From the IMG/VR virus record IMGVR_UViG_3300021141_000706: 64,000 bases of DNA. One strand, 5' to 3'. Source of the DNA: a virus. Position numbers and translations under genes: made by a program. Below, piece by piece: positions 1,520 to 33,609 of the stretch (position 1 is the first letter of the stretch; each line of letters starts with the position of its first letter). Below the pieces are notes generated by a model. The model did no database searches and had not been told where the DNA came from. It saw only the letters and a program-made list of their open reading frames with translations.

Positions 1520-1527
1520 TAATTGAA

Positions 1528-2493
1528 ATGAAAGATTTAATAATAGTAACCGCCTATTGTAAAACTGAAGAGCAAGAAAGGTGTTTAGAAAAATGTATTG
1601 ATTCAGTAATTAAATCAGATGCTCACGTTGCTCTTATTTCACACTCACATGCTCCAATACATATTCAGAAAAAGTGTCAATATTATTTTTATGATTATCT
1701 AAATGATATTTCAGATGATTACAAACTACTGGGTTTAAAGTATTTCTCATTTAATAATAATGTTAATAATGTGATTCAATCTATATTTTTTGAAAAATAT
1801 TTTTATGGATTTGCCATTTATAGAATGTTTTCAATTGCTAGTCAAATAGCTATAAATTTTGGTTATCAAAATATTCATCATATTGAATATGACTGTGAGC
1901 TTTTAGATGTAAATCTTATAAACGAACACAGTAATTTACTTGAAGAATGTGATTCAGTAATTTATACAAACACTGGTAAAGAAGATGGTTTTCTTTATGG
2001 ATCATTCAAGTCATTTAAAGTTAGCTCACTTCCAGATAATTTCAAAAATTATAATCGTGAATTTATTAAAAATGAAATTTCAAAAATGAATCCAGCCGCT
2101 TTGGAGTTTTTAACAAAAAGAATTTTTATGAATTCCGGAAAAGTTTTATTTAAAAATACAAATGGATTGTATAATAGATTTAAGGGTGGTGAGCATTTTT
2201 ATAATAGAAATCTACACTATACTTTTTATTATAATCCTGATGACGGATCATTAAATTTATTTTATAAAGGTTTTGATTTTGAAGAAAAAATAACTGTTAT
2301 TGTTAATAAACAAAAAGTTATTAATTTGGATGTTAAACCAAATCATTGGTATGTAAGACCATTAGGTACATTTGATGAAATAGATAATGTTAGAATTGAT
2401 AACTCTGTTAAAATTTTATTTGAAAAGAATTTTGACCAAATCGAAAGAGAAATCTATAAAAATAAATCATTTATTTGTGAACAAAATAATTAA
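1528..2493 (+). CDS. hypothetical protein, possibly glycosyltransferase-like
   Basis: GT-A-like start (LIIVTAY...LEKCIDSV) and HIEYD acidic motif; sits in a glycan-related operon. Confidence 0.5.
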   Translation: MKDLIIVTAYCKTEEQERCLEKCIDSVIKSDAHVALISHSHAPIHIQKKCQYYFYDYLNDISDDYKLLGLKYFSFNNNVNNVIQSIFFEKYFYGFAIYRMFSIASQIAINFGYQNIHHIEYDCELLDVNLINEHSNLLEECDSVIYTNTGKEDGFLYGSFKSFKVSSLPDNFKNYNREFIKNEISKMNPAALEFLTKRIFMNSGKVLFKNTNGLYNRFKGGEHFYNRNLHYTFYYNPDDGSLNLFYKGFDFEEKITVIVNKQKVINLDVKPNHWYVRPLGTFDEIDNVRIDNSVKILFEKNFDQIEREIYKNKSFICEQNN

Positions 2494-3304
2494 TTTTACT
2501 CCAACTGGTACACAAACCACAAGAGATAATTCGTATGCTCCTTTGATTCCAAATGAGATAATTGAGTCTGTACATGAGGCTAATGAATTAGGTATATCTA
2601 TAGTTCATTTACACGCAAGAGATGAGATTACATTAGAGAATACTTATAAGAAAGAAGTATATCAAAAGATAATAGAGGGTATAAAAAAATATTGTCCTGA
2701 GTTATTGATTTGTGTTTCTTTAACGGGTAGAAATTTTCCTGAATTAGAGAAAAGATCAGAAGTGTTACAGTTACTACCTGATATGGGTTCACTAACTATG
2801 TCTTCTTTAAATTTTCCATCAGGTGCCTCAGTTAATCAACCTAATATGATTCTATCTTTGATAGATGAAATGAATAAATATGGAGTACAGCCAGAGATAG
2901 AATGTTTTGATACAGGTATGTTGAATTATACTAATTATCTTATATCAAAAGGTAAATTAAATCCACCGTATCACATTAATATAATCTTAGGTAATATATA
3001 CAACGGTCAGTGTGATTTAAGTAATTTATCATCGATTAAGACCAATCTACCATCTAATTCATATACTTGTTTAGGTGGTATAGGCTCTCAACAATTAAAT
3101 AGTAACTTATATGGTTTATTAGATTTTGATGGCGTTAGAATTGGACTTGAGGATAATTTATATCTTAAAGAAAAGAAAAAAACAACAAATAGTGAACTAT
3201 TAAAAAGATTACATAGAATAATGAATGAGTTAGATATAACTCATTATACATCAAAAGAATTAAAACAATTAGGATATGGAAACAAAATTATTAATAATAG
3301 GTAA
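2477..3304 (+). CDS. 3-keto-5-aminohexanoate cleavage (BKACE/DUF849) family protein
   Basis: FTPTG, SIVHLHARD, PEIECFD, GVRIGLEDN motifs; start moved to GTG at 2477. Confidence 0.85.
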   Translation: MNKIINFTPTGTQTTRDNSYAPLIPNEIIESVHEANELGISIVHLHARDEITLENTYKKEVYQKIIEGIKKYCPELLICVSLTGRNFPELEKRSEVLQLLPDMGSLTMSSLNFPSGASVNQPNMILSLIDEMNKYGVQPEIECFDTGMLNYTNYLISKGKLNPPYHINIILGNIYNGQCDLSNLSSIKTNLPSNSYTCLGGIGSQQLNSNLYGLLDFDGVRIGLEDNLYLKEKKKTTNSELLKRLHRIMNELDITHYTSKELKQLGYGNKIINNR

Positions 3305-3914
3305 AGGAGATAATATTATAACAATGATATTAGATAATTTATATTCTAATAAGAGTACACCAGAAATTCACATATACAATAATCTAAAACTTCCTATACT
3401 GAACACATTTGAACATGATGAATTTGATATAAAAGTATTAGAGGATTTAGACCTAAATGAATATGATAAAATGACTCTGGGTGTTTATCAACCTCAACAT
3501 AAAATAAAAATAATAGAATCATTAAAGCCTGATGTGAATAAATTTACTAATATTATACATAGTGGTTTAGATATATCTAAAATGAGTAAAATAGGAAGAG
3601 GAGTTTTAATCAATTCAAAAGTATCAATTGCTGCTCATACAACAATTGGTGATTTTGTTTCAATTAATAGACACGTTTCTATAGGACATCATACTATAAT
3701 AGAAGATTATTGCTCTATTAATCCAGGTGTTAATATTGCTGGAAATGTTGTAATAGGCGAAGGCACAACAATTGGAATGGGTACAAACATTCTTCATCAA
3801 GTTAAGATAGGTAAAAATTCAATTATTGGAGCTGGTTCAGTTGTTACAAAAGATATACCTGATAATGTTGTAGCATATGGATCACCGTGTAAAATAATCA
3901 GAAATATTATTTGA
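3276..3914 (+). CDS. NeuD/PglD-like sugar acyltransferase (hexapeptide repeats)
   Basis: Left-handed beta-helix repeats; IGAGSVVTKDIPDNVVAYGSPCK. Confidence 0.9.
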   Translation: METKLLIIGKGDNIITMILDNLYSNKSTPEIHIYNNLKLPILNTFEHDEFDIKVLEDLDLNEYDKMTLGVYQPQHKIKIIESLKPDVNKFTNIIHSGLDISKMSKIGRGVLINSKVSIAAHTTIGDFVSINRHVSIGHHTIIEDYCSINPGVNIAGNVVIGEGTTIGMGTNILHQVKIGKNSIIGAGSVVTKDIPDNVVAYGSPCKIIRNII

Positions 3915-3940
3915 CAATTCAAAAAGTTTTACTATCTTTG
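3910..3940 (+). promoter_or_regulatory. Bacteroidota sigma70-type (early) promoter for the tRNA-CUA operon
   Basis: TTTG-N19-TATCTTTG. Confidence 0.8.
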
Positions 3941-3951
3941 TAAAACAAATT

Positions 3952-4031
3952 GCGAGTAGAGTCTAATGCGGCGTGGAAGTCGCGGGCGCCTCTAAAACGT
4001 CTAACACCGGGTTCAAATCCTGCTACTCGCA
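3952..4031 (+). tRNA. tRNA-like gene with CUA (amber suppressor) anticodon and atypical fold
   Basis: GCGAGTAG/CTACTCGC acceptor stem, GGTTCAAATCC T-arm, CTCTAAA anticodon loop; no encoded CCA. Confidence 0.7.
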
Positions 4032-4044
4032 CTAATTTTTTATT

Positions 4045-4221
4045 ATGAAATATATTCTTGTTGCCCTATTATCTATTGCTCTTTTTTCTTGTAAAACACA
4101 AAAGACATCTTGTGATGCTTATTCCGTAAATCAAAGTGATACTACTTTTATCACACCCAATCATTATCATATAGAGTCAGAATATAAATGTGTTTGGTTG
4201 GATACGGCAGTTAGAAAATGA
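4045..4221 (+). CDS. small lipoprotein (58 aa)
   Basis: MKYILVALLSIALFSC signal with lipobox, then KTQKTSCDAY; below the ORF-track cutoff. Confidence 0.75.
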   Translation: MKYILVALLSIALFSCKTQKTSCDAYSVNQSDTTFITPNHYHIESEYKCVWLDTAVRK

Positions 4222-6759: not shown

Positions 6760-7229
6760 TGACTAATATAAAGAAATTAAAGTACAAGTATTTACGTCTA
6801 AGAGTTAAATGGCGTAATTTTAGAAATTCGATCGATGATAAAATGGTCGCTGAGAAATCTAAACTAACCCCATATGAAGAAAAAGCCATTAGACTTTGGA
6901 AGATTCTTCTAAGAGACGAAGACACTAAAATGTCGTATAATACTTACGGTGTTCGTCAAATTGAAAAGAATAATGTATTTATGACTTTTCAATCTGGCGG
7001 TAATAACGATTATATAATGACACTTATTGACATCACTGATGAAAGAAGAAGTTTATATGAGTTACATATTCCACTTAAACACGCTGATGTTGTATCAGAT
7101 CACTTTGACTATGAGTTAGAGAAAAGAATGAAAAGAGCTGAGACTAATAAAAGAGCAATTATTGAAACAGATATTGATAAGTTATTAGAACAAGAAGAGA
7201 AAATTCTTTTAAGTAGAATAAAGAAATAA
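6759..7229 (+). CDS. hypothetical protein
   Basis: 156 aa ORF, TAATG coupling to upstream gene. Confidence 0.75.
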   Translation: MTNIKKLKYKYLRLRVKWRNFRNSIDDKMVAEKSKLTPYEEKAIRLWKILLRDEDTKMSYNTYGVRQIEKNNVFMTFQSGGNNDYIMTLIDITDERRSLYELHIPLKHADVVSDHFDYELEKRMKRAETNKRAIIETDIDKLLEQEEKILLSRIKK

Positions 7230-7260
7230 TTTGCCAATTAAAAATAAATACATATCTTTG
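7230..7260 (+). promoter_or_regulatory. early promoter
   Basis: TTTG-N19-TATCTTTG. Confidence 0.8.
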
Positions 7261-7282
7261 TAAAAAGAAATAAATAATAACT

Positions 7283-8848
7283 ATGGTATTAAAGAATATA
7301 CACGAAAAACTATTATCAGGTATCCAGACGATGTTGATTGATACTAAGATTAACCTACCTTACTACGGTGAGTTTAACTTACATATTAACTTCATAGAGC
7401 AAGACTCTGTTGGTACTTGTGGTGTCAACGTATCGTCTAAGGGTATGAACTTTTTCTACTCTCCAAAGTTCTTGGAAGATATGTCACAAAAAGAAGTGAA
7501 TTTCATTACTCTTCACGAGGATTTCCACTTATTGTTTAATCACCCAAAACGTACAGTTACTGGTCAATACGACCATAAGATGTCTAACATCGCCCAAGAT
7601 ATGATTATCAATCACGTTATCTGGGAAGATATTCCACACGCTTTCGTTGAAATTCCTAAGAACAAAGATGGTAAGAATATGGCTTTATTCGTTCCGAAAG
7701 AGTACACTGGTAAACTTATCTTTGAAGAGTTGTACGAGTGGTTGAAAGACGAGAAAGAAAAATGGCAGAAAGAGCAAAAGAAAAACTCTGAATGTAAATC
7801 TTGTGGTGGTTCTGGTAAGAAAGACCAAGGTCAAGGTCAACAAGACCAAAAACAAAAAGGTCAAGGTCAACAACCAGGTGATGGTCAAGGCGAAGGCGAG
7901 AAACAAGAAGGTCAAGGCAAAGGTCAACAACCAGGCGAAGGTCAAGGTCAAGGTGAAAGCCAAGACAAACAAGACGGTCAAGGAAAAGGCGAAGGTCAAG
8001 GTCAACAAGGTGGTGGTTCTGGTGAAGGTGAAAGTTGTCCAGACTGTCAAGGTACTGGTAACGAAGGTGGTAAAGACTCAAGTGGTAAACCATCTTACGG
8101 ACCTTACGGAAAGAACCCATCTAAAGATGGTGAGTCTTTAGATACTTGGTCTAAAGAGCAAATCTTCCAAGATATGGAAAATGGTAACGGAGAATACATG
8201 GACAAACACATGGGAGACGATGTTCCAGAAGAAATGCGTGAAGCAATGGTTAAAGACGTTATGGAGCGTTTAGCGGCTCGTGGTTTATCTGCGGGTAATG
8301 TTGAGACTACTCTTAACAAACTTCGTAAGAAACGTAAAGATTATCTTCGTGAAATCAAACGTGCTGTATCAAATATGATTTTCGGTACTGTAAAACAAAA
8401 AACGATTGTTAAACCTAACCGTAGACAAATCGCTGGTTTGAAAGGTAACCGTAAAGTTAAAAACAAAATCAATTGTATCTTAGATACATCTGGTTCAATG
8501 GGTGGTACTTTTGAAAGAGTTCTTTCTTACATCTACCGTAATGATATTGAAATCAACTTGATTGAGGCTGATACTGAAGTTAAGTGGATTGAGAACATCA
8601 AGAACAAACGCAAGTTGGAAACAATGGTGATTAAAGGTCTTGGTGGTACTATCTTACAACCTGCTATCGACTTGGTAGCTGACCAGTTCAATGAGTTCAA
8701 CACTGTTGTCTTAACAGACGGATATTGTGACTCTCTTGACTTGTCAAAAATCAAAGGCAAAGTATTAATGGTTTCAATTGGAGTGAAAGTTCCAATCTCA
8801 AGAAGTAATGGTAAGGTAAAACAAATTATGGTTGAGAAAGAAAGCTAA
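7283..8848 (+). CDS. DUF2201-like metallopeptidase-VWA protein (typical MoxR partner)
   Basis: HEDFH (HExxH), NIAQDMIIN, MIDAS DTSGSM, GLGGT, VLTDG; GQ-rich linker. Confidence 0.85.
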   Translation: MVLKNIHEKLLSGIQTMLIDTKINLPYYGEFNLHINFIEQDSVGTCGVNVSSKGMNFFYSPKFLEDMSQKEVNFITLHEDFHLLFNHPKRTVTGQYDHKMSNIAQDMIINHVIWEDIPHAFVEIPKNKDGKNMALFVPKEYTGKLIFEELYEWLKDEKEKWQKEQKKNSECKSCGGSGKKDQGQGQQDQKQKGQGQQPGDGQGEGEKQEGQGKGQQPGEGQGQGESQDKQDGQGKGEGQGQQGGGSGEGESCPDCQGTGNEGGKDSSGKPSYGPYGKNPSKDGESLDTWSKEQIFQDMENGNGEYMDKHMGDDVPEEMREAMVKDVMERLAARGLSAGNVETTLNKLRKKRKDYLREIKRAVSNMIFGTVKQKTIVKPNRRQIAGLKGNRKVKNKINCILDTSGSMGGTFERVLSYIYRNDIEINLIEADTEVKWIENIKNKRKLETMVIKGLGGTILQPAIDLVADQFNEFNTVVLTDGYCDSLDLSKIKGKVLMVSIGVKVPISRSNGKVKQIMVEKES

Positions 8849-9174: not shown

Positions 9175-9738
9175 ATGAAAGTAATATTTTTAGATAATGA
9201 TGGTGTTGTTTGCTTGTCTACCGAATGGGGTGGACGAGGCAAAAAGAAATCTAAGTACTTGAAAGAATTTCCAGGTACTGAAGATACTATGCCTGCTTGG
9301 GTAAAAATGGATAACTTCAATGATAAAGCTGTTAAGATTCTTAATTCAATCTTATTAGAAACTGATGCTGAAATTGTTGTTAGTTCTGATTGGAAGTTAT
9401 ATTGTACTTTAGATGAACTAAAAGAAATGTTTACTAAGTATGGTGTTATCAAACAACCAATTGATACTACTCCTAGTATTCCTTTGAAGTATGATAAAAA
9501 CTATTACACTGCTGGAGAATTAGCTGACTATAGAATAAGTGAAGTTAATAAGTGGTTAAAAGAACATCCAGAAGTAACTCACTGGGTTGCTGTTGATGAT
9601 TTGCCTTTAGGTGAATTATATGGTCCAATCTCTGGTAACTTTCTTGGTGGTTTGAAGAACTTTGTCTTAACACCAAAGAGTTCCGAAGGTATTAAACAAA
9701 GTGGCATTAAAGAAAAAATATTAAAATTCTTACTGTGA
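9175..9738 (+). CDS. HAD phosphatase, Swiss-Army-Knife RNA-repair type
   Basis: IFLDNDGV, IVVSSDWK, WVAVDD motifs. Confidence 0.8.
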   Translation: MKVIFLDNDGVVCLSTEWGGRGKKKSKYLKEFPGTEDTMPAWVKMDNFNDKAVKILNSILLETDAEIVVSSDWKLYCTLDELKEMFTKYGVIKQPIDTTPSIPLKYDKNYYTAGELADYRISEVNKWLKEHPEVTHWVAVDDLPLGELYGPISGNFLGGLKNFVLTPKSSEGIKQSGIKEKILKFLL

Positions 9739-11619: not shown

Positions 11620-11874
11620 TTAAAATTCTATTTTTTCAACGTCATTTAAATCGACATTGTATTGTTTTCCATCAATCTCAACGGTGATTAAGCCATCTTG
11701 ATCAATATCAATCGGAGTTATACCTTCTTCAGGTTTATTTTCAGGGAAATCATGAACAATAGTTGAATAAATAAGACCTCTATTTTTTATACACTTGATA
11801 ATATCATCTTGTGTTATAAGAGTTCCTTCCTCATTATTCTTCTTAAAATCCTCAAAAAGTTTCATCCATTTCAT
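11620..11874 (-). CDS. small hypothetical protein with N-terminal leader
   Basis: Start moved to MKWMKLFEDF, just after TTAATATATA. Confidence 0.7.
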   Translation of the reverse strand: MKWMKLFEDFKKNNEEGTLITQDDIIKCIKNRGLIYSTIVHDFPENKPEEGITPIDIDQDGLITVEIDGKQYNVDLNDVEKIEF

Positions 11875-11879
11875 GAATT

Positions 11880-11901
11880 TATATATTAAAAATAATATAT
11901 A
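11880..11901. promoter_or_regulatory. back-to-back putative late promoters
   Basis: TTAATATATA on - (11880-11889) and TAATATATA on + (11893-11901). Confidence 0.7.
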
Positions 11902-11920
11902 CATAAAATTACTTTATAAA

Positions 11921-13225
11921 ATGGCAGTAAGATGGAAAGGTGGGTGGTCCGGCTCCGGTTCACCTGAAACTAGTTTAATCACATATTATAACGGTGATTC
12001 TGTTTTATATGAAAACATAACATACACCGTCCAAACAAATGTATTGAGTGTACCTATTGGTTCACCTCCCCCACCAAGTGACATGGCTAATTGGGATGTT
12101 CTTGTTGCTGGTGGATCTGATGGTACTTCTGGATCTTCCGGTACAAGTGGATTATCAGGATCAAGTGGAACTTCAGGTTCTTCCGGATCAAGTGGCTCTG
12201 CTGGTACAAGTGGTTCATCTGGGTCTTCTGGTGCTTCAGGGTCAAGTGGTACTTCTGGATCTTCAGGTATTTCAGGTTTTAAAGATAACGATTGGTTATC
12301 CTTAATCCCCACTAGCGGAAGCATAGCTACTACGGGTAATGTGTTTGTTTTAAGTGGGACTACGACCTCGTATGGTGAGGTCTCCTATAACAATTCCACA
12401 GGAATAATTACCCTAGCATCCAATAAGACTTATAATATAAGAGCATCATTATCACTTGCTAATGATGTGCTCAATGCCGAAGTTCAATATCAATGGATAA
12501 ATGTAACATCAGGTAATACTACGATAGGAAATTCAGGAGGAGTTTTAGTAGTTTCCAGCACAGCAACAGCAGCTTGGCAACCTGTCGCAGAAGCTATCAT
12601 TACAACATCTGCTTCAACTCAAATTGCTTTAAAATCAAACTTTAGTAATTCATCCGGAAGTTTAAACTTTTACATGTGTTACTTTTTAGTCCAAGAGATA
12701 TACGGATATTCAGGATCGAGTGGATCATCTGGTACTTCTGGATCATCTGGTACATCAGCACCTGGTATAACATCTGGATCTTCTGGTACTTCAGGATCTT
12801 CTGGTTCATCAGGTAGTTCTGGAACAAGTGGTTCTTCGGGTACATCAGGATTGAGTGGTAATGTACCAGTCACGGGAAGTTGGACTTTATCTACAGGTGC
12901 CAATACTGTTAGTTTTACAGTTCCCAGTGCGAATTCATATGTTATGTGGGTGAACGGAAATATTCCAAATGGTATTGTTAATTGGAATGCCACGGTAACA
13001 TTATCAAACTCAAATGTGCCAGTAATAGGTTCGCAATATGGTTGGTACTATTCAGCAGGAAATGCTTTAGTTTTAACATCAATACCAAGTCAAATAGTTG
13101 GAACTCTAGGAAGTATTAGTACCTCAATGCCAGCAGTTTCAAATTCAAATACATTTACATTTGGTATAACAAATAACAGTGTTACATCACAAACAGTTTA
13201 TTACGGATATATTAAAGTAAGTTAG
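11921..13225 (+). CDS. fibre/decoration-like virion protein with Gly-X-Ser triplet repeats
   Basis: Start moved to MAVRWKGGW; CBM-like N-terminus, two (GSS/GTS)n tracts, beta-rich domains. Confidence 0.7.
   Translation: MAVRWKGGWSGSGSPETSLITYYNGDSVLYENITYTVQTNVLSVPIGSPPPPSDMANWDVLVAGGSDGTSGSSGTSGLSGSSGTSGSSGSSGSAGTSGSSGSSGASGSSGTSGSSGISGFKDNDWLSLIPTSGSIATTGNVFVLSGTTTSYGEVSYNNSTGIITLASNKTYNIRASLSLANDVLNAEVQYQWINVTSGNTTIGNSGGVLVVSSTATAAWQPVAEAIITTSASTQIALKSNFSNSSGSLNFYMCYFLVQEIYGYSGSSGSSGTSGSSGTSAPGITSGSSGTSGSSGSSGSSGTSGSSGTSGLSGNVPVTGSWTLSTGANTVSFTVPSANSYVMWVNGNIPNGIVNWNATVTLSNSNVPVIGSQYGWYYSAGNALVLTSIPSQIVGTLGSISTSMPAVSNSNTFTFGITNNSVTSQTVYYGYIKVS
12113..12277 (+). repeat. degenerate 9-bp coding repeat (G-S/T-S)n, tract 1
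   Basis: GGTACTTCT/GGATCTTCT-type units; boundaries approximate. Confidence 0.8.
12704..12858 (+). repeat. degenerate 9-bp coding repeat (G-S/T-S)n, tract 2
   Basis: Same unit type as tract 1; boundaries approximate. Confidence 0.8.
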
Positions 13226-16022: not shown

Positions 16023-17192
16023 ATGAAATTAAAAAGATATAATCAATTTTTAGAATCTAAATCTGATATGTGGGATATCATTCCACAATCAGTGAAAGAG
16101 TTACACGAACTATTTCAATCAGCAGGTAAGAAACTTTACTTAGTTGGTGGTTCAGTGCGTGACTTCTTAACTGGTGATAAACCAAAAGATTTTGACTTAG
16201 CAACCGATGCTCTTCCAGATGAAGTTTTGGAAATTGTCGGAGATAAATTTAGAACTAACCTTCAAGGTAAAGCCTTCGGAGTTGTTGTAGTTTACACTAA
16301 AGAAGTTCCAGAAGGAATGGAAATTGCTACATTCAGAGAAGATGTTTCAAAAGGTCGTAACCCAGAAGTTAAATTGGGTGTTACTATTGAAGATGATGTT
16401 AAGCGTAGAGACTTAACTTACAACTCTCTTTTCTATGATTTAGATACAAGACAAATCGTTGACTTAGTTGGTGGTAAAGAAGATTTACAATCTGGTATTA
16501 CGAGAATGGTTGGTGATCCTATTGAAAGATTTGATGAAGATTCATTAAGAATTTTAAGAGCATTTAGATTTGCTTCAAGATATGAACATCCTTTACATAA
16601 AGATACTGAAAGTGCTATTGAGAAAAGAAAACAACTTCAAAACATTGATCCAGAGACTGGTGAAATGAAAAGAATTTCTCAAGAAAGAGTTTGGGAAGAA
16701 ATGAAGAAAGCTTGGAAACAAGCCAAAGATTACAGATACTACTTATCATTCTTTACTAAGTTTGATATGTGGGATGAAGTATTTCCTGTTGCTAACATCA
16801 ATACTAATTTAGTTGATTCAAAAGACTTTATAGTTGTTGTTGCTAACTTATTTAAGAACGAATCCACTTTAGGTTTGACTGATAGACTAGCTCAAGAATA
16901 TAAGATTGAATTAGAAACAGCTACTAAAGTAACTTTCTTACTTTCGTTATTAAATTTCAAAGTAGAAGATGTATTTGATATTTACAAGAAAAGACAACAA
17001 TGTGCTATCACTGATGCTACTATTTTAGAGTGGTTAAAAGTCGAAGGTATTGATACTGATACTTTAGTTAAGTTTGTTGAATACAAACCAAGTGTATCTG
17101 CTCAAGAACTTATGTCTCAAGGATTCAAGGGTAAAGATCTTGGTGATGAAATCAAAAGATTAGAGATAGAAAAATTTAAACAAATGCTATGA
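16023..17192 (+). CDS. cca: CCA-adding tRNA nucleotidyltransferase (class II)
   Basis: LVGGSVRD..KDFDLAT, EIATFR, RRDLTYN, EDSLRILRAFRF, SQERVWEE. Confidence 0.9.
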   Translation: MKLKRYNQFLESKSDMWDIIPQSVKELHELFQSAGKKLYLVGGSVRDFLTGDKPKDFDLATDALPDEVLEIVGDKFRTNLQGKAFGVVVVYTKEVPEGMEIATFREDVSKGRNPEVKLGVTIEDDVKRRDLTYNSLFYDLDTRQIVDLVGGKEDLQSGITRMVGDPIERFDEDSLRILRAFRFASRYEHPLHKDTESAIEKRKQLQNIDPETGEMKRISQERVWEEMKKAWKQAKDYRYYLSFFTKFDMWDEVFPVANINTNLVDSKDFIVVVANLFKNESTLGLTDRLAQEYKIELETATKVTFLLSLLNFKVEDVFDIYKKRQQCAITDATILEWLKVEGIDTDTLVKFVEYKPSVSAQELMSQGFKGKDLGDEIKRLEIEKFKQML

Positions 17193-18040: not shown

Positions 18041-20854
18041 TTAGAATGTATATTTAACTGAGGCTGATATTGTTTGACCAAAGTTTATGTTTTGCCAATT
18101 GTTATCACCTTTATCATACTTTTGATTACCGTTCAAGTCTTGGAAGTAAACTAAGTCTTGAGCTAAGATATCTTTTATATTAAGTTTTGTTTCAAAGTGT
18201 TTACCAAACTTTTTAGATACTTGAAAGTCTATAACATTTCTTCCATTTTCCCAAACTGAAGGCTCTTGAATATTACCTACAATGTAAATTCTTTGACCAA
18301 TTACATTATAAGATAAAGTTACTGTCATATCTTTCTTAGGTGTATTATAGAATATACCAGAGTTTATAATGTAAGGTGACTGACCTTGTAGTGGTCTGTT
18401 CTCACCAGAACCAATGAAGTGACTCATATCAACTGTTGACTTTATTAAAGACAGGTTTGAATAAACTGTTATGTTATCCCATACTTTACTTTCTTTCTTA
18501 CAGAATGTTCCTAAGTTATATCTAATTTCAAATTCAGCACCGATATTTGTTACTTTATTTACATTAGCGTAGTAAAGTTCAGGTGCTCCTGATGTACCAG
18601 TTCTATTGATTAACTCAATTGGATTCTCAAATGTTTTATAGAAACCAGATACAGATATGATTTGACCTTTACCAGGATACATTTCCCATCTAACATCAAA
18701 GTTATCTATGGTAGCTCTTTTCAAATTAGGGTTACCACTTACTATATTATCAATAACAAAGTTATAGAAACTAAATGGTGCTAACTCTCTAAACTCTGGA
18801 CGAGAAACTGTTCTATAATAAGAACCTCTTACTTTCATCTTTTTGTTTAACGAATAAACTATATTAACTGATGGTAAGAAATCAACAACTGTTGTATCAA
18901 TATGTTTATTTTCGTTAGAACCAAACTCAATATAATTAAATTGTTGATTATATGACTCTATTCTTAAACCACCAATGATTCTAAACTTCTCACCAATCTT
19001 TGTATCTGTCATTGCGAAAGCCGCATTTAGAAAAGAGTTGGCTTGATAACTATCATCAACATTTGTAGCTTCATCTAATTTGAAACCTCCTTGACCATTT
19101 GATAAAAGACCCATATTTTCTTGAGAGAATATCTCATCTGGTCCTAATAGTAGTAAGTTACTATTGAATGTGCTACCTGTTGGTTTGTATTGAGAGAACC
19201 CTAAGTTTCTTGATGAGAAATCACGAGTTCTGTATTGATGCCATCCACCTATCTTAAATTCATTTTCTATTTTATTAAAAGTAAAAGGAATAGACCAATC
19301 ATAATTAGCACTGTAGATTTTCTCAGATGATTTAGACCAAAACATATTACCAGCCGCAGTTGGAATAGTTCCATTTTGTTGAATAATAGCTGTCCATTGT
19401 TGAGTTGTATCATCTTCAAGTAATGAATACTTACGATAAACTAATCTTCTAAGATTTGGAATATCTCTTTTAACATCACTGAATCCTAAATTCCAGTTCA
19501 ATTTAGTTTTCTTAATCTCATGTTTACCATATAGTTGTTGAGTTAATAAATTGTTTTGTGTATACCAGAAGTTTGTTGATCTTTCCCATTGACGAGGATC
19601 ATTATCCATCTCTCTAACACCGTTTCTAATATTTACTTTATCTTCTGAATTGATAGAATAAAGATTTTTGAATCTAATTATGTTCTTATCATTAATCTGA
19701 TAAGCAAAGTTTAACATAGCACTATTCAAAATAGTTTGAGTAAATACAGAATCTTTCAATTCCATTTTTTGAACAACACCTGCTGATTGTTCTTCAAAGT
19801 CTCTTCTTACTGAGTTATTCATAGTAGAAGCACTTTGATAACTATAAGCGAAAGTTATACCAAGTGAGTTATCTTTTTTGAATTTGATATATCTACCAAT
19901 CGAGTATTGTAAACTACCAATTGGTAAAGCCAATCTTGATTTAGTTGACCAAGAAGTGTTAATCATTTTTGATAAATCCGCCTTATCTGACTTATTTAGA
20001 GTAGAAAAGTCTAAAGTACTTGGCATTGATTCAGGTAAACTTCTATAGTTAGAACCAAACCCTAAGAAGTCAGTAGAACTTCCTTGATAAGTTTTGAAGT
20101 TTTGAAATGTAGATATCGCATTGAATCCTAAACCATACTGAATACTTTGAAACTTAGAATCTTTTGGTTCAGATGTGCTGATATTAATAACACCACCAGC
20201 AAACTCACCTGGCATATCTGGTGAACCAGACTTCATAACAATTAGATTATCTAACATATTAGAAGGAAAGATATCAAATGAGAAAGCTTTTCTATCTGAT
20301 TCTGAACTTGGTAGTGGAGAACCATTTATTAGAGCGAAGTTGTATCTATCATTTAGACCACGAATAACTACAAACTTATTATCTTGTACAGAAGCACCAC
20401 TCACTCTTTTGAATACATCTGATACTTTCGTATCTGGTGTTTTCTTAAAAGTTTCAGCATTAACACCATCTTGAACGACAGCACTGTTGCTTTGTTGTTT
20501 AACTAAATCAACTGTTGATTCTTTATTAGCTTTAGCTTTAACTGTAACAGTTCCTATGTCTAAAGTTTTTTCCTTTAACTTTATATTTAAAGTGTCTTTT
20601 GATGTCGCTTTAATGAATTGTGAATGATAACCCATGTATCTAAATTCTAAAGAGTAAGTAGGTTTATCTAAACCTTTCAATTCAAATTTACCATTTATGT
20701 CAGTTGTGGTTCCTTTTCCGGACTCACCTTGAATTAGTATCAACACGCCAATGACTGGCTCGTTTGAAATCGAGTCAGTCACTGTGCCTGATATTTGTGA
20801 AAATGCTGTAAGTGTCGATATTAAGAATGTAAATATCAGTAAGAGTTTTTTCAT
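18041..20854 (-). CDS. TonB-dependent outer-membrane receptor
   Basis: Signal peptide, CarboxypepD_reg-like N-domain, plug (IRGLNDRYN...GEFAGG), beta-barrel ending in terminal Phe (VKYTF). Confidence 0.9.
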   Translation of the reverse strand: MKKLLLIFTFLISTLTAFSQISGTVTDSISNEPVIGVLILIQGESGKGTTTDINGKFELKGLDKPTYSLEFRYMGYHSQFIKATSKDTLNIKLKEKTLDIGTVTVKAKANKESTVDLVKQQSNSAVVQDGVNAETFKKTPDTKVSDVFKRVSGASVQDNKFVVIRGLNDRYNFALINGSPLPSSESDRKAFSFDIFPSNMLDNLIVMKSGSPDMPGEFAGGVINISTSEPKDSKFQSIQYGLGFNAISTFQNFKTYQGSSTDFLGFGSNYRSLPESMPSTLDFSTLNKSDKADLSKMINTSWSTKSRLALPIGSLQYSIGRYIKFKKDNSLGITFAYSYQSASTMNNSVRRDFEEQSAGVVQKMELKDSVFTQTILNSAMLNFAYQINDKNIIRFKNLYSINSEDKVNIRNGVREMDNDPRQWERSTNFWYTQNNLLTQQLYGKHEIKKTKLNWNLGFSDVKRDIPNLRRLVYRKYSLLEDDTTQQWTAIIQQNGTIPTAAGNMFWSKSSEKIYSANYDWSIPFTFNKIENEFKIGGWHQYRTRDFSSRNLGFSQYKPTGSTFNSNLLLLGPDEIFSQENMGLLSNGQGGFKLDEATNVDDSYQANSFLNAAFAMTDTKIGEKFRIIGGLRIESYNQQFNYIEFGSNENKHIDTTVVDFLPSVNIVYSLNKKMKVRGSYYRTVSRPEFRELAPFSFYNFVIDNIVSGNPNLKRATIDNFDVRWEMYPGKGQIISVSGFYKTFENPIELINRTGTSGAPELYYANVNKVTNIGAEFEIRYNLGTFCKKESKVWDNITVYSNLSLIKSTVDMSHFIGSGENRPLQGQSPYIINSGIFYNTPKKDMTVTLSYNVIGQRIYIVGNIQEPSVWENGRNVIDFQVSKKFGKHFETKLNIKDILAQDLVYFQDLNGNQKYDKGDNNWQNINFGQTISASVKYTF

Positions 20855-20860
20855 ATAGAA

Positions 20861-22444
20861 TTATTTTCTAACTATAATCTTTTTTGTTGTATTATCAACT
20901 TGTAAGAAATAGATACCATTCGTAAGTGTACTAACATCTAAACTAAGATTTCCTGATACTGTTTGAGTATTAATTACTCTACCCATACCATCGATTAAAG
21001 TTACTTGTACTAATCTATCAGTTGTGATGTTTACATTGTTTGTAGCAGGGTTAGGGTAGATAGATACGTTTGTAGTTTTAGTAATCTCATTTACACTAAC
21101 AAATCCACCAACAAATTTAGAGTTTGTGAAATCAGCTCCTGTTGCTACTAATGAAGTAGAATCTAATCTACAGTCAGGTGTAGTTCCTAATGTTGGAAAA
21201 GCATTGACCCAATTGATTTGAGATACTGAAGTTGTTGTATCATTTACTGAAGCAACTGTTGTAAAGAAAGTTGGTGTGGCAGTTACATAACTAGCACCTA
21301 AAGGTAGTTCAGTTAAAACATTGTTTGAGAAAACTAATGTTCCAGATGTTACGTTATTCTCACAAGAAGGACCTTCGATTGATAATCCTTTTTCCCAACC
21401 AACTACTAAAGAGTTGAATACTGAGATAGAAGAGTTTCTTCTAATTCTAAAAGCTTTTTCAAATTTTTCACCAACTGGTAAAGATAAAGAACCATTTCCT
21501 TTAGCTCCAATAATTGTTAAGTTTGAGAATATTGCTGCTGTTTGTGGTGTGTTAGCTGAACCAGCCGCATCGTTATCTGATTCTAAACCGTTTGAGTCAC
21601 CAGCCGCATCATACATAGTATTATCACGAATGATTAAACCAAATTGAATTCTACCTCTGTAACCAAAATCAGTATCGAAGTCATCATCAATTCCTCTGTA
21701 AGCGATTAGATGTTTACAATCAACTGTGCCACCAAACCATTCGTAAGAGTCATCACCTGAGAAAGAAACTTGTATAAAGTCTACTTGAGTTCCTCTACCA
21801 ACTGAACCAAAAGTAATACCGTTGATTTCTTTGTTTGGTTCTAAAGCGATACCAGCAAATTCAATTCTTACATATTTTAATGAACCTGAGTTATCATTGT
21901 CATCTGATCCACCATATTGTGTATTAGCAGTTGGTACAATACCTTCAATGTTAGCAACACCACCTGGTTGATTATTTGTAGCTTGACCTAAGATAACTAA
22001 ACCACCCCAGTCACCTTCAGCTCTATTACCAACTGATTCATTTGAAGTGAAAACGATTGGTAAGTTTTGTGTACCTTCAGCTATTATTTTACAACCTTTA
22101 GTAACGATTAAAGTTGCTTGTGTTGCTTTGTCACCTCTGATAATTGTACCAGGTAAGATAGTTAATGTAGCTCCGTTAGTTACATAGATTTTATTTTGTA
22201 ATAAAACATTACCACCGATTGTTGTGTTTGTTGTAATGTCTGAGTTAAGTGTAGAAGTAGTTGAAGGATAGTTAGTGTTTTCTGGGTCGAAATTTGACCA
22301 TCCATATGTCCAGTTTGTACCTGGTGTTCCATCAGTTACAGGGAATGCTCCTTTGTAAGATGTTGCTGTCCAAAATGTAGACTGTGCGTTTAGACTAAGA
22401 TTAAGACCAAGTCCGATTAAAATAAGAGTAAATAATTTTCTCAT
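20861..22444 (-). CDS. secreted beta-helix-like protein with T9SS type A C-terminal sorting domain
   Basis: Signal peptide; GDWGGL, DDNSG.LKYVRIEFAG, DDDFDTDFGY; CTD IYPNPA...GIYFLQV...KKIIVRK. Confidence 0.85.
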   Translation of the reverse strand: MRKLFTLILIGLGLNLSLNAQSTFWTATSYKGAFPVTDGTPGTNWTYGWSNFDPENTNYPSTTSTLNSDITTNTTIGGNVLLQNKIYVTNGATLTILPGTIIRGDKATQATLIVTKGCKIIAEGTQNLPIVFTSNESVGNRAEGDWGGLVILGQATNNQPGGVANIEGIVPTANTQYGGSDDNDNSGSLKYVRIEFAGIALEPNKEINGITFGSVGRGTQVDFIQVSFSGDDSYEWFGGTVDCKHLIAYRGIDDDFDTDFGYRGRIQFGLIIRDNTMYDAAGDSNGLESDNDAAGSANTPQTAAIFSNLTIIGAKGNGSLSLPVGEKFEKAFRIRRNSSISVFNSLVVGWEKGLSIEGPSCENNVTSGTLVFSNNVLTELPLGASYVTATPTFFTTVASVNDTTTSVSQINWVNAFPTLGTTPDCRLDSTSLVATGADFTNSKFVGGFVSVNEITKTTNVSIYPNPATNNVNITTDRLVQVTLIDGMGRVINTQTVSGNLSLDVSTLTNGIYFLQVDNTTKKIIVRK

Positions 22445-23440: not shown

Positions 23441-23525
23441 GGTCGGGTGGTGGAATAGGTAGACACGAGGGACTTAAAATCCCTTGCCCCTAAAGGGCGT
23501 GCGGGTTCGATTCCCGCCTCGACTA
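23441..23525 (+). tRNA. tRNA-Leu(TAA)
   Basis: Cloverleaf with AGGGA-CTTAAAA-TCCCT arm, long variable arm, GGTTCGATTCC; no CCA. Confidence 0.95.
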
Positions 23526-23533
23526 CAAATATT

Positions 23534-23607
23534 GGTTGCGTAGCTCAGCTGGATAGAGCAACTCACTTCTAATGAGTAGGTCACAGGTTCGAATCCTGTC
23601 GCGATCA
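23534..23607 (+). tRNA. tRNA-Arg(TCT)
   Basis: ACTCA-CTTCTAA-TGAGT anticodon arm, GGTTCGAATCC; no CCA. Confidence 0.95.
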
Positions 23608-23620
23608 CAAATCAAATAAA

Positions 23621-23878
23621 ATGAGAACATCAATACTATCAGTGGCTGCTTTAGGAATTCTATCAATTGGTTTTATGTTTGGTTCAGTTGTATCAAACGG
23701 TAAACGTGAGAAGATAGAACAGTCTTATCAAAGTAAAATTGACTCACTAGGTCTTATAATTGAAGATAAAGACTGGCAAATTGAAGAATTAGAAAAAGAA
23801 ATCTCTTTTAGAGAATCAGAAATTAGCTACTGGGGTCAAAAGTACGATTCGCTTCGATTCGAAGAAAATTGGCCCTAA
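23621..23878 (+). CDS. small membrane-anchored coiled-coil protein
   Basis: N-terminal hydrophobic helix followed by heptads. Confidence 0.7.
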   Translation: MRTSILSVAALGILSIGFMFGSVVSNGKREKIEQSYQSKIDSLGLIIEDKDWQIEELEKEISFRESEISYWGQKYDSLRFEENWP

Positions 23879-23961
23879 TAAAGTAGCCCTTGGGCCTCGT
23901 TAAGCCTCTTACCCTAGTGGTAACGTAACGAGTGGGAGTAGGGTAACACCGACGCCTCCCA
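23871..23961 (+). ncRNA. candidate structured RNA of unknown class
   Basis: GC-rich intergenic island with three hairpins and 8-nt loop-loop complementarity; strand assumed from flanking tRNAs. Confidence 0.45.
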
Positions 23962-23966
23962 AATTT

Positions 23967-24040
23967 GGTCCTGTAGCTCAGTTGGTTAGAGCAACTGACT
24001 CATAATCAGTAGGTCCACGGTTCGAGCCCGTGCGGGACCA
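23967..24040 (+). tRNA. tRNA with CAT anticodon (Ile2 more likely than Met)
   Basis: ACTGA-CTCATAA-TCAGT arm, GGTCCTG/CGGGACC stem; lacks initiator features; no CCA. Confidence 0.9.
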
Positions 24041-24057
24041 CTAAAAAAGAAAAGAAT

Positions 24058-24310: not shown

Positions 24311-25450
24311 ATGGCTGAAATGACACAAAAATCCACAATGCCTCAATCAGTGATTGAGAATCTTTCAAAGTTAACCGAGAAAGAGCGTAAATACTTTGCC
24401 GTGATGTGGGCAAAATATGGTGTATTGAATATTACATCTAAACCAGGCGTTGCGAAGTCTGCTATTGGTAAATCAATTGCCGATAAAATGAACTTCCGAT
24501 ATATGGATATTCGTTTGTCAATGGTTGACGAAACTGACGTGGGTTTGTATCCATCTATCAACGAAATTGAAGTTGATGGTAAGATGGTTAAGTGTTTGGA
24601 CTTCGTTGTTCCTCGTTGGGCAGTTGAAGCTAACAAGCAACCAACGATTATCCACTTTGAAGAGTTGAACCGTGCTTCTCAGCAAGTTCGTAATGCCGCT
24701 CTTCAAATCCTACTTGAGCGTCAGATTGGTACTGACTTCAAATTCAACGATAGCGTACTTATGATGTCTTCTGGTAACTTAGGTGACGAAGACGGAACAG
24801 ACGTTGAAGAGTTTGACTCTGCCTTGAACAACCGTTTGGTTCACATCAACCATACATTGTCAGTTGACGAGTGGATTAAAGACTTCGCGATGGATAACTG
24901 TCACAAGTTAATCACCTCTTTCATCAAAGCTCACCCAGAGCAAATGTACAAAGGTGCCACTGAGAACACAAAGGCTTACGCTACTCCACGTTCTTGGACT
25001 ATGATGTCTAAGTTCATCACCGAAAACTTCGGTCAAGATGCTTCACCTCGTGAGTTCTTGCCTTTGTTGAAAGAGGTGGCAAGTGGTTACTTAGGTAACT
25101 CTGCTGTGAAGTTCGTTCAATACTGCGAAGATATGTTGAATATTTCTATCAACGATGTAATCAACAACTACGACGGTATCAAGAAAGACCTTGAGAAGTA
25201 CAACCGTGATAAGAACTCTGAATTGATTCAATCATTGAAAGAGATCGATATCACCAAGTTGAATAAGAAACAACTTGACAACGTTGTAAAGTTCTTGAAC
25301 AACGTGGGTGATGATGAGAAAACCGCTTACTTGCTTTACATCTTAGATAACATCGCCGATGTAACGAACCCAACCTTGAAGACTTTCTTGCTTCAGTTCG
25401 AAGACCTTCTTCGTACTATCAAGAAAATCAACAAGCCTGGTAGTAAGTAA
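24311..25450 (+). CDS. MoxR-like AAA+ ATPase
   Basis: Variant Walker A SKPGVAKS, Walker B IHFEELNRA, DSALNNRL, TPRSW. Confidence 0.85.
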   Translation: MAEMTQKSTMPQSVIENLSKLTEKERKYFAVMWAKYGVLNITSKPGVAKSAIGKSIADKMNFRYMDIRLSMVDETDVGLYPSINEIEVDGKMVKCLDFVVPRWAVEANKQPTIIHFEELNRASQQVRNAALQILLERQIGTDFKFNDSVLMMSSGNLGDEDGTDVEEFDSALNNRLVHINHTLSVDEWIKDFAMDNCHKLITSFIKAHPEQMYKGATENTKAYATPRSWTMMSKFITENFGQDASPREFLPLLKEVASGYLGNSAVKFVQYCEDMLNISINDVINNYDGIKKDLEKYNRDKNSELIQSLKEIDITKLNKKQLDNVVKFLNNVGDDEKTAYLLYILDNIADVTNPTLKTFLLQFEDLLRTIKKINKPGSK

Positions 25451-31975: not shown

Positions 31976-32320
31976 ATGAAACTCGATATCAATGAAGTTT
32001 ACCACAATTATATAGTTAGAATAGTAATATTTGCTCTTTTTACTTTCAAAAGACAGATAAGACAACCAAATATTTATAAGATTTCTGTTATAACTTTCAC
32101 TATTAAAAGATTGCCTTGGAAAATTAATTTAGTAATTGATACTGGATTGAAATTAAATAAAGAAGATGAAAGAGAAATACTACTTAATGAATTATTAGAG
32201 GGTATTGAAACAGATTATTTATCAACAGTTGTTGTTACATTTGTGACACCATTAAAAGAAGTTACGATGAGTATTGATTTAAGTGATGAAGAAAAGTATG
32301 AACACTATCTTTATTCTTAA
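31976..32320 (+). CDS. hypothetical protein
   Basis: 114 aa; internal tag-like EREILLNELL. Confidence 0.6.
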   Translation: MKLDINEVYHNYIVRIVIFALFTFKRQIRQPNIYKISVITFTIKRLPWKINLVIDTGLKLNKEDEREILLNELLEGIETDYLSTVVVTFVTPLKEVTMSIDLSDEEKYEHYLYS

Positions 32321-33609
32321 TATTCAAATATTACTTCAGCTCTTCTGTAGTTTAAGTCATATGAACTAAATCCAAAGATATCACAGATTCTTTCAAATTT
32401 ATCATCACAACTTTCTTCAGATGGTAATTCACCATCATAAGCATAAGAACTAAATTCTAATTTTGTTTCATAATCACCTATTCTTATACTTTCAACTCTG
32501 AATCCTAACTTTTCAACTTCTTCTCTTAACTCATCTTCATCAGGCAATTCGAATTTATCATTTTCAATATCTGTCTTACTAAATTCAAAAAATACCCAAT
32601 CAATTTTAACTTCTTTACCTTTTCCACTAGTTTCACTACGCCAAGCACCATCAGATCCTGCTCTAAAAGTAGAAAGAACCCAACCATCTTCACCTAATCT
32701 ACCAATTGTGGATTGCATGTTATCAAGCACTACCATTAAGTTATTATAACTACCATCTTTAGGTGAATAAACAATAGTAAATTTACTAACCGTTTTATTT
32801 TTAGATACAAGAACTGGTTTGAAGTTTTGATACCTTGTATTCTTCTCAAGATAATCTGTATAAGTCATTTCACCAGTAGATGATTTGAATGTTATCTTTT
32901 CACCTTCATCAATAAAGTCTAACATAGTATCAACTATCTTATCAACTTCATTTTCAATACCGTGTGATTCTCTTAAAAAAGAAACATACTTATCTACTTT
33001 TCTTTTCTTTAACTCACCATTATCAAATTTATAGTATTTATAATTACCATCTTTATTAAGAACAACATAGAAAGCATCTGGTTTAACATATTTCAAATAA
33101 CTTTTTGTAGTTTGTAGTTGAGTTGAGTAGACATGGTCGATATAATCATCATCTGCCGTATGACCACCCGTCATTCCTCTTTTTTTGTTTTGTGACTTAG
33201 CAGTCTCAACATCAATTAAAATTAAGATAAACATTATCTTATATCCTAATTTTTGAGCGTCTTTTGTAATTTCAAAAACATTTATATCATTTGAGCCAGT
33301 TGTGTCATAGATAAAGTTTTGACCGCTTTTCATATAATGTTTTAATGAAGTAATATTTAATTCAGAAGCTCCTTTGTAATAGTCAGACTTGTCTTTAGTA
33401 AACAAATAAGAAACATCATCTGTTGAAAATGTTTTGATATTTGAATTATGAGGAACAATGAATCTATTGGCAAATGTAGACTTACCAGAACCAGGTAGAC
33501 CTAAAAGAACAATGCCAAGTTTTTCTTTCATCCTATTGATTTCAGGAATAGGATCATTCTTAGAATACTCTTCATTTACAAAACCACTGAAATTGTTAAT
33601 AACTTTCAT
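32317..33609 (-). CDS. P-loop kinase (AAA_33/zeta/PNK-like) fused to an unknown domain, with leader
   Basis: MKVINNFSGFVNEE; GLPGSGKST, STDD, IYDTT. Confidence 0.75.
   Translation of the reverse strand: MKVINNFSGFVNEEYSKNDPIPEINRMKEKLGIVLLGLPGSGKSTFANRFIVPHNSNIKTFSTDDVSYLFTKDKSDYYKGASELNITSLKHYMKSGQNFIYDTTGSNDINVFEITKDAQKLGYKIMFILILIDVETAKSQNKKRGMTGGHTADDDYIDHVYSTQLQTTKSYLKYVKPDAFYVVLNKDGNYKYYKFDNGELKKRKVDKYVSFLRESHGIENEVDKIVDTMLDFIDEGEKITFKSSTGEMTYTDYLEKNTRYQNFKPVLVSKNKTVSKFTIVYSPKDGSYNNLMVVLDNMQSTIGRLGEDGWVLSTFRAGSDGAWRSETSGKGKEVKIDWVFFEFSKTDIENDKFELPDEDELREEVEKLGFRVESIRIGDYETKLEFSSYAYDGELPSEESCDDKFERICDIFGFSSYDLNYRRAEVIFEY

Follow-up and report, generated by a model that had tools for sequence, protein, structure and literature searches.

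A conserved tRNA(CUA) gene with a non-canonical D-arm in huge phages that use the standard genetic code

Why would a phage that reads the standard genetic code carry a transfer RNA (tRNA) gene with an amber anticodon, and in a fold that tRNA models reject? The question is raised by an 80-nt element at positions 3952-4031 of IMG/VR record IMGVR_UViG_3300021141_000706, a stretch of 64,000 nucleotides that is referred to here as the window. The window has a GC content of ~30% and is part of a huge phage of ~0.3-0.5 Mb with a Bacteroidota host. A first-pass annotation, made from the letters alone, had described a loop with the anticodon CTA, an 8/4 or 7/5 acceptor/T branch, a linker before a separate D-stem, and a C-A pair closing the anticodon stem, and this description matched the sequence letter for letter. 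Megablast and blastn against INPHARED found no close phage, and close relatives are present in IMG/VR. Those compared here are G001 (a 476-kb IMG/VR record, CheckV 97% complete), G006 (IMG/VR 3300032288_004964, 385 kb, 95% complete), G019 (281 kb, 94% complete) and L116 (IMG/VR 3300041583_000385, 86 kb).

The minimum-free-energy fold of the element is exactly the described structure (-28 kcal/mol, z = -1.7; Table 1). The acceptor stem of 8 bp (GCGAGUAG : CUACUCGC) ends in the pair G8-C, which would give an 8/4 form, and together with the T stem it makes a branch of 12 bp that can be written as 8+4 or as 7+5 with one mismatch. G8-C is invariant across homologues, and a 7/5 form with a 49·65 mismatch fits just as well. 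The anticodon CUA (3992-3994), flanked by U33 and A37, sits in a 7-nt loop, CUCUAAA, which is closed by a C31·A39 apposition on a GGCG/CGUC stem. Several canonical hallmarks are present, namely U33, a purine at 37, a T-loop of the UUCRANY type and the GG of the elbow, which lies within the D-hairpin loop GUGGAA. In place of the 2-nt connector and 4-bp D stem of a canonical tRNA, however, there are an 8-nt connector and a 5-bp hairpin.

Standard tRNA detection bears out the non-canonical fold that had been claimed. ARAGORN did not call the element and reported only three ordinary tRNAs in the window, at 23441-24041. Rfam model RF00005 gave it 21.6 bits against a gathering cut-off of 29, with the D region aligned as an insertion of 21 nt; the corresponding E-value of 0.028 comes from a search of 281 nt and is by itself not significant window-wide. 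The L001 copy scored 24.6 bits, and the diverged form of G019 described below was not matched by RF00005 at E <= 0.5.

The fold was then judged by its homologues. DNA-pattern scans found 13 near-identical copies, of which 8 are distinct, in viral and metagenome contigs; many further pattern hits in metagenomes and IMG/VR were dropped as GC-rich chance matches or ordinary tRNAs. The 8 close variants differ only at acceptor pairs 4 and 5, at a single base of the D-loop and at three bases of the variable region (positions 52, 53 and 56). At both acceptor pairs A-U, G-U and G-C are found and pairing is never lost, and position 56 (canonical 49), found as C, U or A, is never able to pair with C65. 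The tRNA is 97.5-100% identical among close relatives, versus 73-86% for adjacent DNA. A covariance model search recovered a diverged copy in G019, upstream of the homologue of a gene for a 599-aa protein. Its connector is likewise 8 nt long (AACUUAAU), all five pairs of its D hairpin are changed yet paired (UUAGU/GCUAA) with the loop GG retained, and four of the five anticodon-stem pairs are compensated. Its anticodon loop, A-UUCUAAC-C, retains CUA, U33 and A37 and is closed by A·C. The T arm, unchanged in the close homologues, has an identical stem in G019 and a loop that differs by one base (UUCGAAU).

Across the nine distinct sequences (the 8 close variants and G019), 22 of 22 pairs are kept, and nine pairs are changed on both sides (three in the D stem, four in the anticodon stem, two in the acceptor). 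None of 500 shuffles equalled this covariation, partners that were slid out of register were 35-50% paired, and RNAalifold independently gave the same structure. The retention and compensation of pairs indicate that the unusual fold is real and under selection, and the amber-anticodon tRNA-like gene proposed at first pass is thus upheld in a standard-code genome. These data also bear on the suggestion that the element is a decaying tRNA pseudogene, an attP-type fragment or a chance fold, which could draw on the sub-threshold Rfam score (E 0.028 over 281 nt) and on the 'provirus' tag that IMG/VR gives the 476-kb relative. We regard this as very improbable: the cloverleaf-like fold is complete with both acceptor strands, every stem substitution keeps pairing, the promoter is conserved, and neighbouring open reading frames (ORFs) scanned against Pfam and PHROGs matched no integrase family. 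The complete covarying fold and its conservation above that of the flanks contradict all three versions.

Where did such a fold come from? A second model found an ordinary tRNA(CUA) at the same locus in G006 (L106:901-973) and L116 (1442-1513); both are called by ARAGORN and score 59.5 and 55.9 bits with RF00005. Like the window element, they have U33-CUA-A37, A73 and a short variable loop, but they are 72-73-nt cloverleaves with a 2-nt connector and a 4-bp D stem, whereas the window has the 8-nt connector and a new 16-nt hairpin. In all four lineages (the window's clade, G019, G006 and L116) the locus is syntenic, lying 1-2 kb upstream of the gene for the 599-aa protein, itself 50-62% identical, and U33-CUA-A37 is kept. 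The first-pass annotation had listed an anticodon not conserved in related phages among the outcomes that would speak against it; CUA is instead kept at the same locus in four diverged lineages. Three of the four share an A/C apposition at 31·39 (window C·A, G019 A·C, L116 A·C). Given the canonical tRNA(CUA) genes that relatives have at this locus, the odd fold is best read as a derived, maintained form of an old canonical amber tRNA. In L116, A9 with the 5' strand of the D stem and the start of the D-loop reads AGUUUAAU, which shares 7 of its 8 positions with the window connector AGUCUAAU. Accordingly, our preferred reading is that a new 16-nt GG-containing hairpin took the place of the 3' part of the D-arm and orphaned the old 5' strand as the connector. 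An origin from another tRNA of the same phage was also considered and set aside, as none of the 53 tRNAs of G001 closely matches the element.

The gene appears to have its own promoter, as had been claimed. A scan for the Bacteroidota-type consensus TTTG-N17-21-TAnnTTTG gave 17 matches in the window, versus 4.05 expected, mostly directly before genes, and one of them ends 11 nt 5' of the tRNA start. The -7 motif TAnnTTTG also stands 5' of the syntenic tRNAs in G019, G006 and L116 (~10 nt upstream of the canonical forms in the latter two). In all close relatives the promoter and tRNA form a constant module (3908-4036) between flanks that are both mosaic. The window and two relatives have a 2.4-kb insertion (1527-3907) directly upstream of the module, which most relatives are without and which encodes an unassigned ORF, a beta-keto-acid cleavage enzyme (BKACE) and a hexapeptide acyltransferase; the gene downstream of the tRNA also varies between relatives. 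The other tRNAs of the window lie 19.4 kb away, in agreement with the distance noted at first pass.

An amber tRNA would be expected in a genome that reads TAG as sense. When the codes were compared, reading TAG as sense added no more long-ORF length than reading TGA as sense in the window, G001, G019 and G006, which rules out genome-wide TAG recoding and agrees with the standard code assumed at first pass. TAG makes up 7-10% of the stops of ORFs of at least 100 aa in the latter three. In the window, four genes end in TAG (stops at 13225, 15604, 46110 and 47829) and none is interrupted by it, both as first reported, and the next stop follows each TAG within 0-8 codons. One of the four encodes a 476-aa collagen-repeat protein (11795-13225) with a TAA four codons past its TAG. 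A release factor (RF-1 domain) was searched for in G001 only, and none was found there.

The element could still be a leftover or a first step of TAG-to-sense recoding (code 15) with no present function. A GC content of ~30%, TAA-dominated stops and rare TAG fit a proposed recoding path, and phages of Bacteroidota hosts often recode TAG (bioRxiv 10.1101/2021.08.26.457843). Nevertheless, the amber tRNA stands at one locus in four diverged lineages, of which the three near-complete ones are all standard-code, and compensatory changes together with conservation above the flanks point to present-day constraint. A precursor or relic of recoding, one of the roles first suggested, fits poorly with a trait this stable, and we consider such a transitional state improbable.

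We propose that the element is a working, probably weak, amber suppressor that is kept as a stable trait of the phage family, a reading to which we give about an even chance. The gene would be transcribed by the host RNA polymerase from its own -33/-7 promoter, and the transcript would be trimmed by RNase P and 3' nucleases before addition of CCA; the phage has a CCA-adding-type enzyme that could supply this unencoded 3' end. The tRNA would then be charged by a synthetase tolerant of a CUA anticodon, such as LeuRS or GlnRS, delivered by EF-Tu, given the intact 12-bp acceptor/T branch, and would decode UAG in competition with RF1. Its ancestor would have been an ordinary cloverleaf tRNA(CUA), in which the 3' half of the D-arm was replaced in the window's clade. 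As UAG ends only ~5-10% of genes and, in the window, a backup stop follows 0-8 codons on, read-through would be cheap for the phage. The benefit probably lies in an effect on host translation termination, or in a buffer against CAG-to-TAG and TGG-to-TAG mutations in an AT-rich genome.

The sequence offers two candidates for the amino acid that would be inserted, Leu and Gln. The element has A73 with a Leu-type acceptor and T arm. Its 22 nt from the T-loop to A73 matched 13 loci in a species-genome collection, and 11 of the 12 checked were bacterial tRNA-Leu. The same 3' part matches three of five further phage tRNAs, and it is matched by phage tRNA-Leu(UAA) genes with an identical acceptor stem. 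Bacterial tRNA-Leu genes with the same 3' half also show the 49·65 mismatch when written in the 7/5 frame. LeuRS does not read the anticodon, and this property together with the Leu-like 3' part makes Leu a candidate. The element has no class II long arm, and its canonical relative in G006 has a class I D-arm. GlnRS reads U35. Gln is the usual outcome for CUA tRNAs (bioRxiv 10.1101/2021.08.26.457843).

The phage synthetases, which had been singled out for inspection at first pass together with a release factor, give a divided answer: GlnRS and GluRS are encoded in G001 and G006 and neither in G019, and no release factor was found in G001. TyrRS and TrpRS were not found in G001. At 258727-259989 (L019:18727-19989), directly after a 30-tRNA array ending in tRNA-Leu(CAA), G001 encodes a LeuRS core of 421 aa in which HIGH and KMSKS motifs are present but the CP1 editing domain and the Leu-specific insertion are missing, as is most of the C-terminal tRNA-binding part. 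This mini-LeuRS is absent from G006 and G019, both of which carry the amber tRNA, so a phage-private LeuRS/tRNA pair is not supported. G019 has none of GlnRS, GluRS and LeuRS.

Several results weigh against a working suppressor. The standard tRNA models reject the element (21.6 versus 29 bits, no ARAGORN call, the G019 form unmatched), and its expression, processing, charging and decoding, like its benefit, are inferred. The 8-nt connector, the loss of core contacts of the U8-A14 type and the A/C apposition at 31·39 could each block charging or decoding. For the G001 copy (L004:5473-5552), minimum-free-energy folding of the single sequence favors a different structure in which the anticodon stem is broken: GUCU of the old D-strand pairs with GGGC of that stem, and the new hairpin is enclosed between them. 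This alternative is probably not the functional fold, since G019 cannot form it, and the two folds may compete. Model R2 found no homologue in two further near-complete relatives (483 and 313 kb), and hence the gene is not essential to the entire family. Finally, there is the search for UAG codons to be read. An all-against-all comparison of TAG-read ORFs from the window, G001, G019 and G006, filtered by coding score and overlap because the unfiltered output was swamped by shadow frames, found no conserved in-frame TAG. A codon-usage score in G001 pointed to one TAG with coding on both sides, which proved to be a gene junction with the ATG of the next gene directly after it. Early TAG codons were not enriched over TAA or TGA (the pattern of ATG, 1-5 codons and a stop before coding segments was seen in 7 of 86 cases for TAG, 16 of 373 for TAA and 4 of 82 for TGA), and nearly all of them have an ATG just after the TAG. 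Read-through of genes elsewhere in the genome, as suggested at first pass, thus found no target in the 476-, 385- and 281-kb relatives.

Other candidate targets were inspected and rejected. Each of five in-frame TAG junctions in G001 is either a gene junction or an antisense frame, a looser screen added six candidates that are non-coding or antisense frames, and of two apparently conserved early-TAG leaders one is a terminator hairpin and the other a gene end in another frame. The single credible comparative case is a TGG-to-TAG change in one DUF7487 gene, found only in G019, where an in-frame TAG at 100179-100181 (L127:179-181) stands in place of a Trp conserved in the G001 and G006 orthologues. 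The protein has repeated aromatic-Gly-Val-Asp-Asn motifs. This TAG could be either a nonsense mutation that a phage with a suppressor tolerates or the mark of a pseudogene.

The same search informs a narrower idea, that the tRNA serves as a private switch for one or a few phage genes with an early or internal UAG, whose products would be made once the tRNA is expressed. The G019 codon just described could be counted in its favor, as could ORFs preceded by ATG, 1-5 codons and TAG (at 2375 and 29076 in the window and at 189320, 456492 and 466602 in G001). The G019 TAG, however, is seen in no other of the genomes, and the gene that holds it is likely dispensable; no early or internal TAG is conserved between genomes, and the early TAGs are unenriched, with an ATG a few codons after nearly every one. 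The ORFs of the seven early-UAG candidates are mutually unrelated (LAGLIDADG, an L7/L12-like domain, an M28 peptidase and others), and the tRNA's neighbors in the window are the lipoprotein-like ORF and unassigned ORFs. PTH2 (PF01981) had no match in G001 at E <= 1. We think a private switch quite unlikely; by the code comparison and the PTH2 search in G001, the amber tRNA in these phages is neither a recoding device nor a PTH2 switch.

The lack of a UAG target in 1.1 Mb of relatives, together with the non-canonical core and its rejection by tRNA models, lends some weight to a tRNA-like RNA that does not decode at all and that the rebuilt core may keep off the ribosome. Such an RNA might act as an aminoacyl carrier, silent because CUA fits no sense codon, or as a decoy for tRNA-targeting host nucleases or modification enzymes; RNA-repair-type genes occur in the region (HAD_SAK_2, the CCA-adding-type enzyme and a kinase-like ATPase). 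It might alternatively mark the 5' end of the lipoprotein mRNA downstream for RNase P processing. The lipoprotein-like ORF begins 14 nt past the tRNA and may be co-transcribed with it, both context types have an ORF that starts 5-15 nt past the tRNA, and a small signal-peptide ORF also lies 3' of the syntenic tRNA in G019 and G006. Yet a processing signal or decoy would not need U33-CUA-A37 in four lineages amid changing stems, the same-locus version in relatives is a fully canonical tRNA, and the parts that are preserved, the acceptor/T branch and the GG/T-loop elbow, are those needed by EF-Tu and the ribosome. We therefore hold a non-decoding role to be doubtful, if far from negligible, and continue with weak amber suppression as the working interpretation.

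The features of the element and its surroundings are collected in Table 1. The T run past the tRNA could be a weak terminator; a terminator scan found none there, and the run is missing in the L001/L004-type context.

Table 1. Coordinates of the tRNA(CUA) gene, its parts and associated features in the window
Feature	Position	Strand	Basis or remark
Non-canonical tRNA(CUA) gene, 80 nt	3952..4031	+	Sequence, fold, sub-threshold Rfam score, homologues, covariation
Acceptor stem, 5' strand, 8 nt	3952..3959	+	Pairs with 4023-4030
Single-stranded connector, 8 nt, AGUCUAAU	3960..3967	+	Read as corresponding to ancestral D-arm positions 9-16
Putative replacement D hairpin, 5-bp stem GCGGC/GUCGC, 6-nt loop GUGGAA	3968..3983	+	
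Anticodon arm	3984..4002	+	Stem 3984-3988 with 3998-4002; loop 3989-3997 CCUCUAAAA
Variable region, 5-6 nt	4003..4007	+	Most variable part of the gene
T arm, 4-bp stem CGGG/CCUG, canonical T-loop UUCAAAU	4008..4022	+	
Acceptor 3' strand and discriminator A73	4023..4031	+	CCA not encoded
Bacteroidota-type promoter, -33 TTTG, 19-nt spacer, -7 TAtcTTTG	3910..3940	+	Pattern search
Six-T run, possible weak terminator	4036..4041	+	Read from sequence
Small lipoprotein-like ORF, 58 aa, signal peptide ending LFSC	4045..4221	+	
CCA-adding-type nucleotidyltransferase	16023..17192	+	Pfam PolyA_pol head domain, E = 5.5e-30

Elsewhere the window encodes a baseplate wedge protein and a virion structural protein. 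The RNA-repair and tRNA-maturation genes mentioned above are at 9175-9738 (HAD_SAK_2, a HAD 'Swiss-army-knife' RNA-repair domain), 16023-17192 (the CCA-adding-type enzyme) and 32317-33609 (a polynucleotide-kinase-like ATPase). On the minus strand, 18041-22444 encodes a 937-aa TonB-dependent receptor with plug, barrel and CarboxypepD_reg domains, together with a protein of 527 aa that has a C-terminal sorting domain for type-IX secretion. A DUF2201 metallopeptidase/VWA-like protein (7283-8848) and a phrog_1297 ATPase (24311-25450) lie 15 kb apart and may, by our own conjecture, work as a pair.

Unusual architectures are also seen among the other tRNAs of these phages. G001, G002 and G006 have extra class I tRNAs (Lys, Glu, Asn, Ile, Thr, Met, Gln and Pro) of 81-90 nt with a hairpin-forming long variable arm, beside normal copies of 72-75 nt; examples are G001 (L017-L020) 219872-219959, 231626-231712 and 257011-257097, G002 7228-7316 and 20374-20463, and G006 245428-245513. 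The same phages also have tRNA-Leu genes of 74 nt that lack the long arm, so that class I and class II architectures are systematically exchanged. Within the tRNA arrays of G001 and G006, ARAGORN reported anticodon loops of 8 nt (acat, agta, attc) or 6 nt (G001 257917-257989 and 271550-271621; G006 263450-263522, 281611-281696 and 282845-282921), which could be frameshift-type tRNAs or mispredictions.

How does the element compare with known amber-reading tRNAs? With the suppressors of TAG-recoded phages (code 15; crAss-like, Lak and others) it shares a phage-encoded amber tRNA, a low-GC, TAA-rich genome, a Bacteroidota-type host and predicted expression from a part of the genome compatible with the standard code. 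The in-frame TAG codons in structural, lysis and other genes that define those phages are missing in the window and its three near-complete relatives, and their release factor was not found in G001, the sole relative searched for it. Some phage suppressor tRNAs have been expected to be non-canonical and missed by detection tools (bioRxiv 10.1101/2021.08.26.457843). Allo-tRNAs, which the first-pass annotation had invoked, have 8/4 or 9/3 branches, and some are nonsense suppressors and some occur in phages (Mukai et al., Nucleic Acids Res 2017, PMC5389517). The likeness holds at most for a possible 8/4 split of the 12-bp branch, as allo-tRNAs have a Ser-type body, a long variable arm and a connector of the usual short length, whereas the element has a variable region of 5-6 nt, no long arm and an 8-nt connector.

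ARAGORN labels the CUA tRNAs of the relatives tRNA-Pyl by their anticodon, which is no evidence of pyrrolysine. tRNA-Pyl has a 3-nt variable loop, a 1-nt connector and no GG or TΨC, and it accompanies pylS/pylBCD genes. The element shares only CUA with it and differs in its G18G19-type GG, TΨC-type T-loop, variable region of 5-6 nt and long connector; a tRNA-Pyl identity was rejected for its lack of the Pyl structural features, and a tRNA-Sec identity was rejected as well. The classical efficient amber suppressors supF (Tyr) and supP (Leu) share the anticodon loop CUCUAAA with the element, and they also share A73 and a GCG-type, tRNA-Leu-like acceptor. They are, however, point mutants of canonical tRNAs with normal cores and a long variable arm, while the element is a natural conserved gene whose D region appears to have been rebuilt.

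What is new beside these systems is the apparently rebuilt D-arm architecture, documented at sequence level by synteny with canonical forms and by covariation. It lets a canonical cloverleaf and a rebuilt D-arm, the latter maintained by compensatory substitutions, be compared as a series at a single locus, and indicates that phage suppressors are undercounted by tRNA finders. If the activity is true, the natural tRNA core is more tolerant of remodelling than textbook rules suggest, and the canonical and remodelled pairs are natural scaffolds for orthogonality tests in genetic-code expansion. More tentatively, and as a possibility that we rate well below an even chance, this may be the first natural tRNA architecture to keep working in translation after a new hairpin took over the 3' half of the D-arm and left its 5' strand as an 8-nt connector; constitutive UAG read-through would then be kept by a family of standard-code megaphages as a tool, through interference with host termination or as a near-silent aminoacyl carrier, and not, as in the code-15 phages, as a change of the code.

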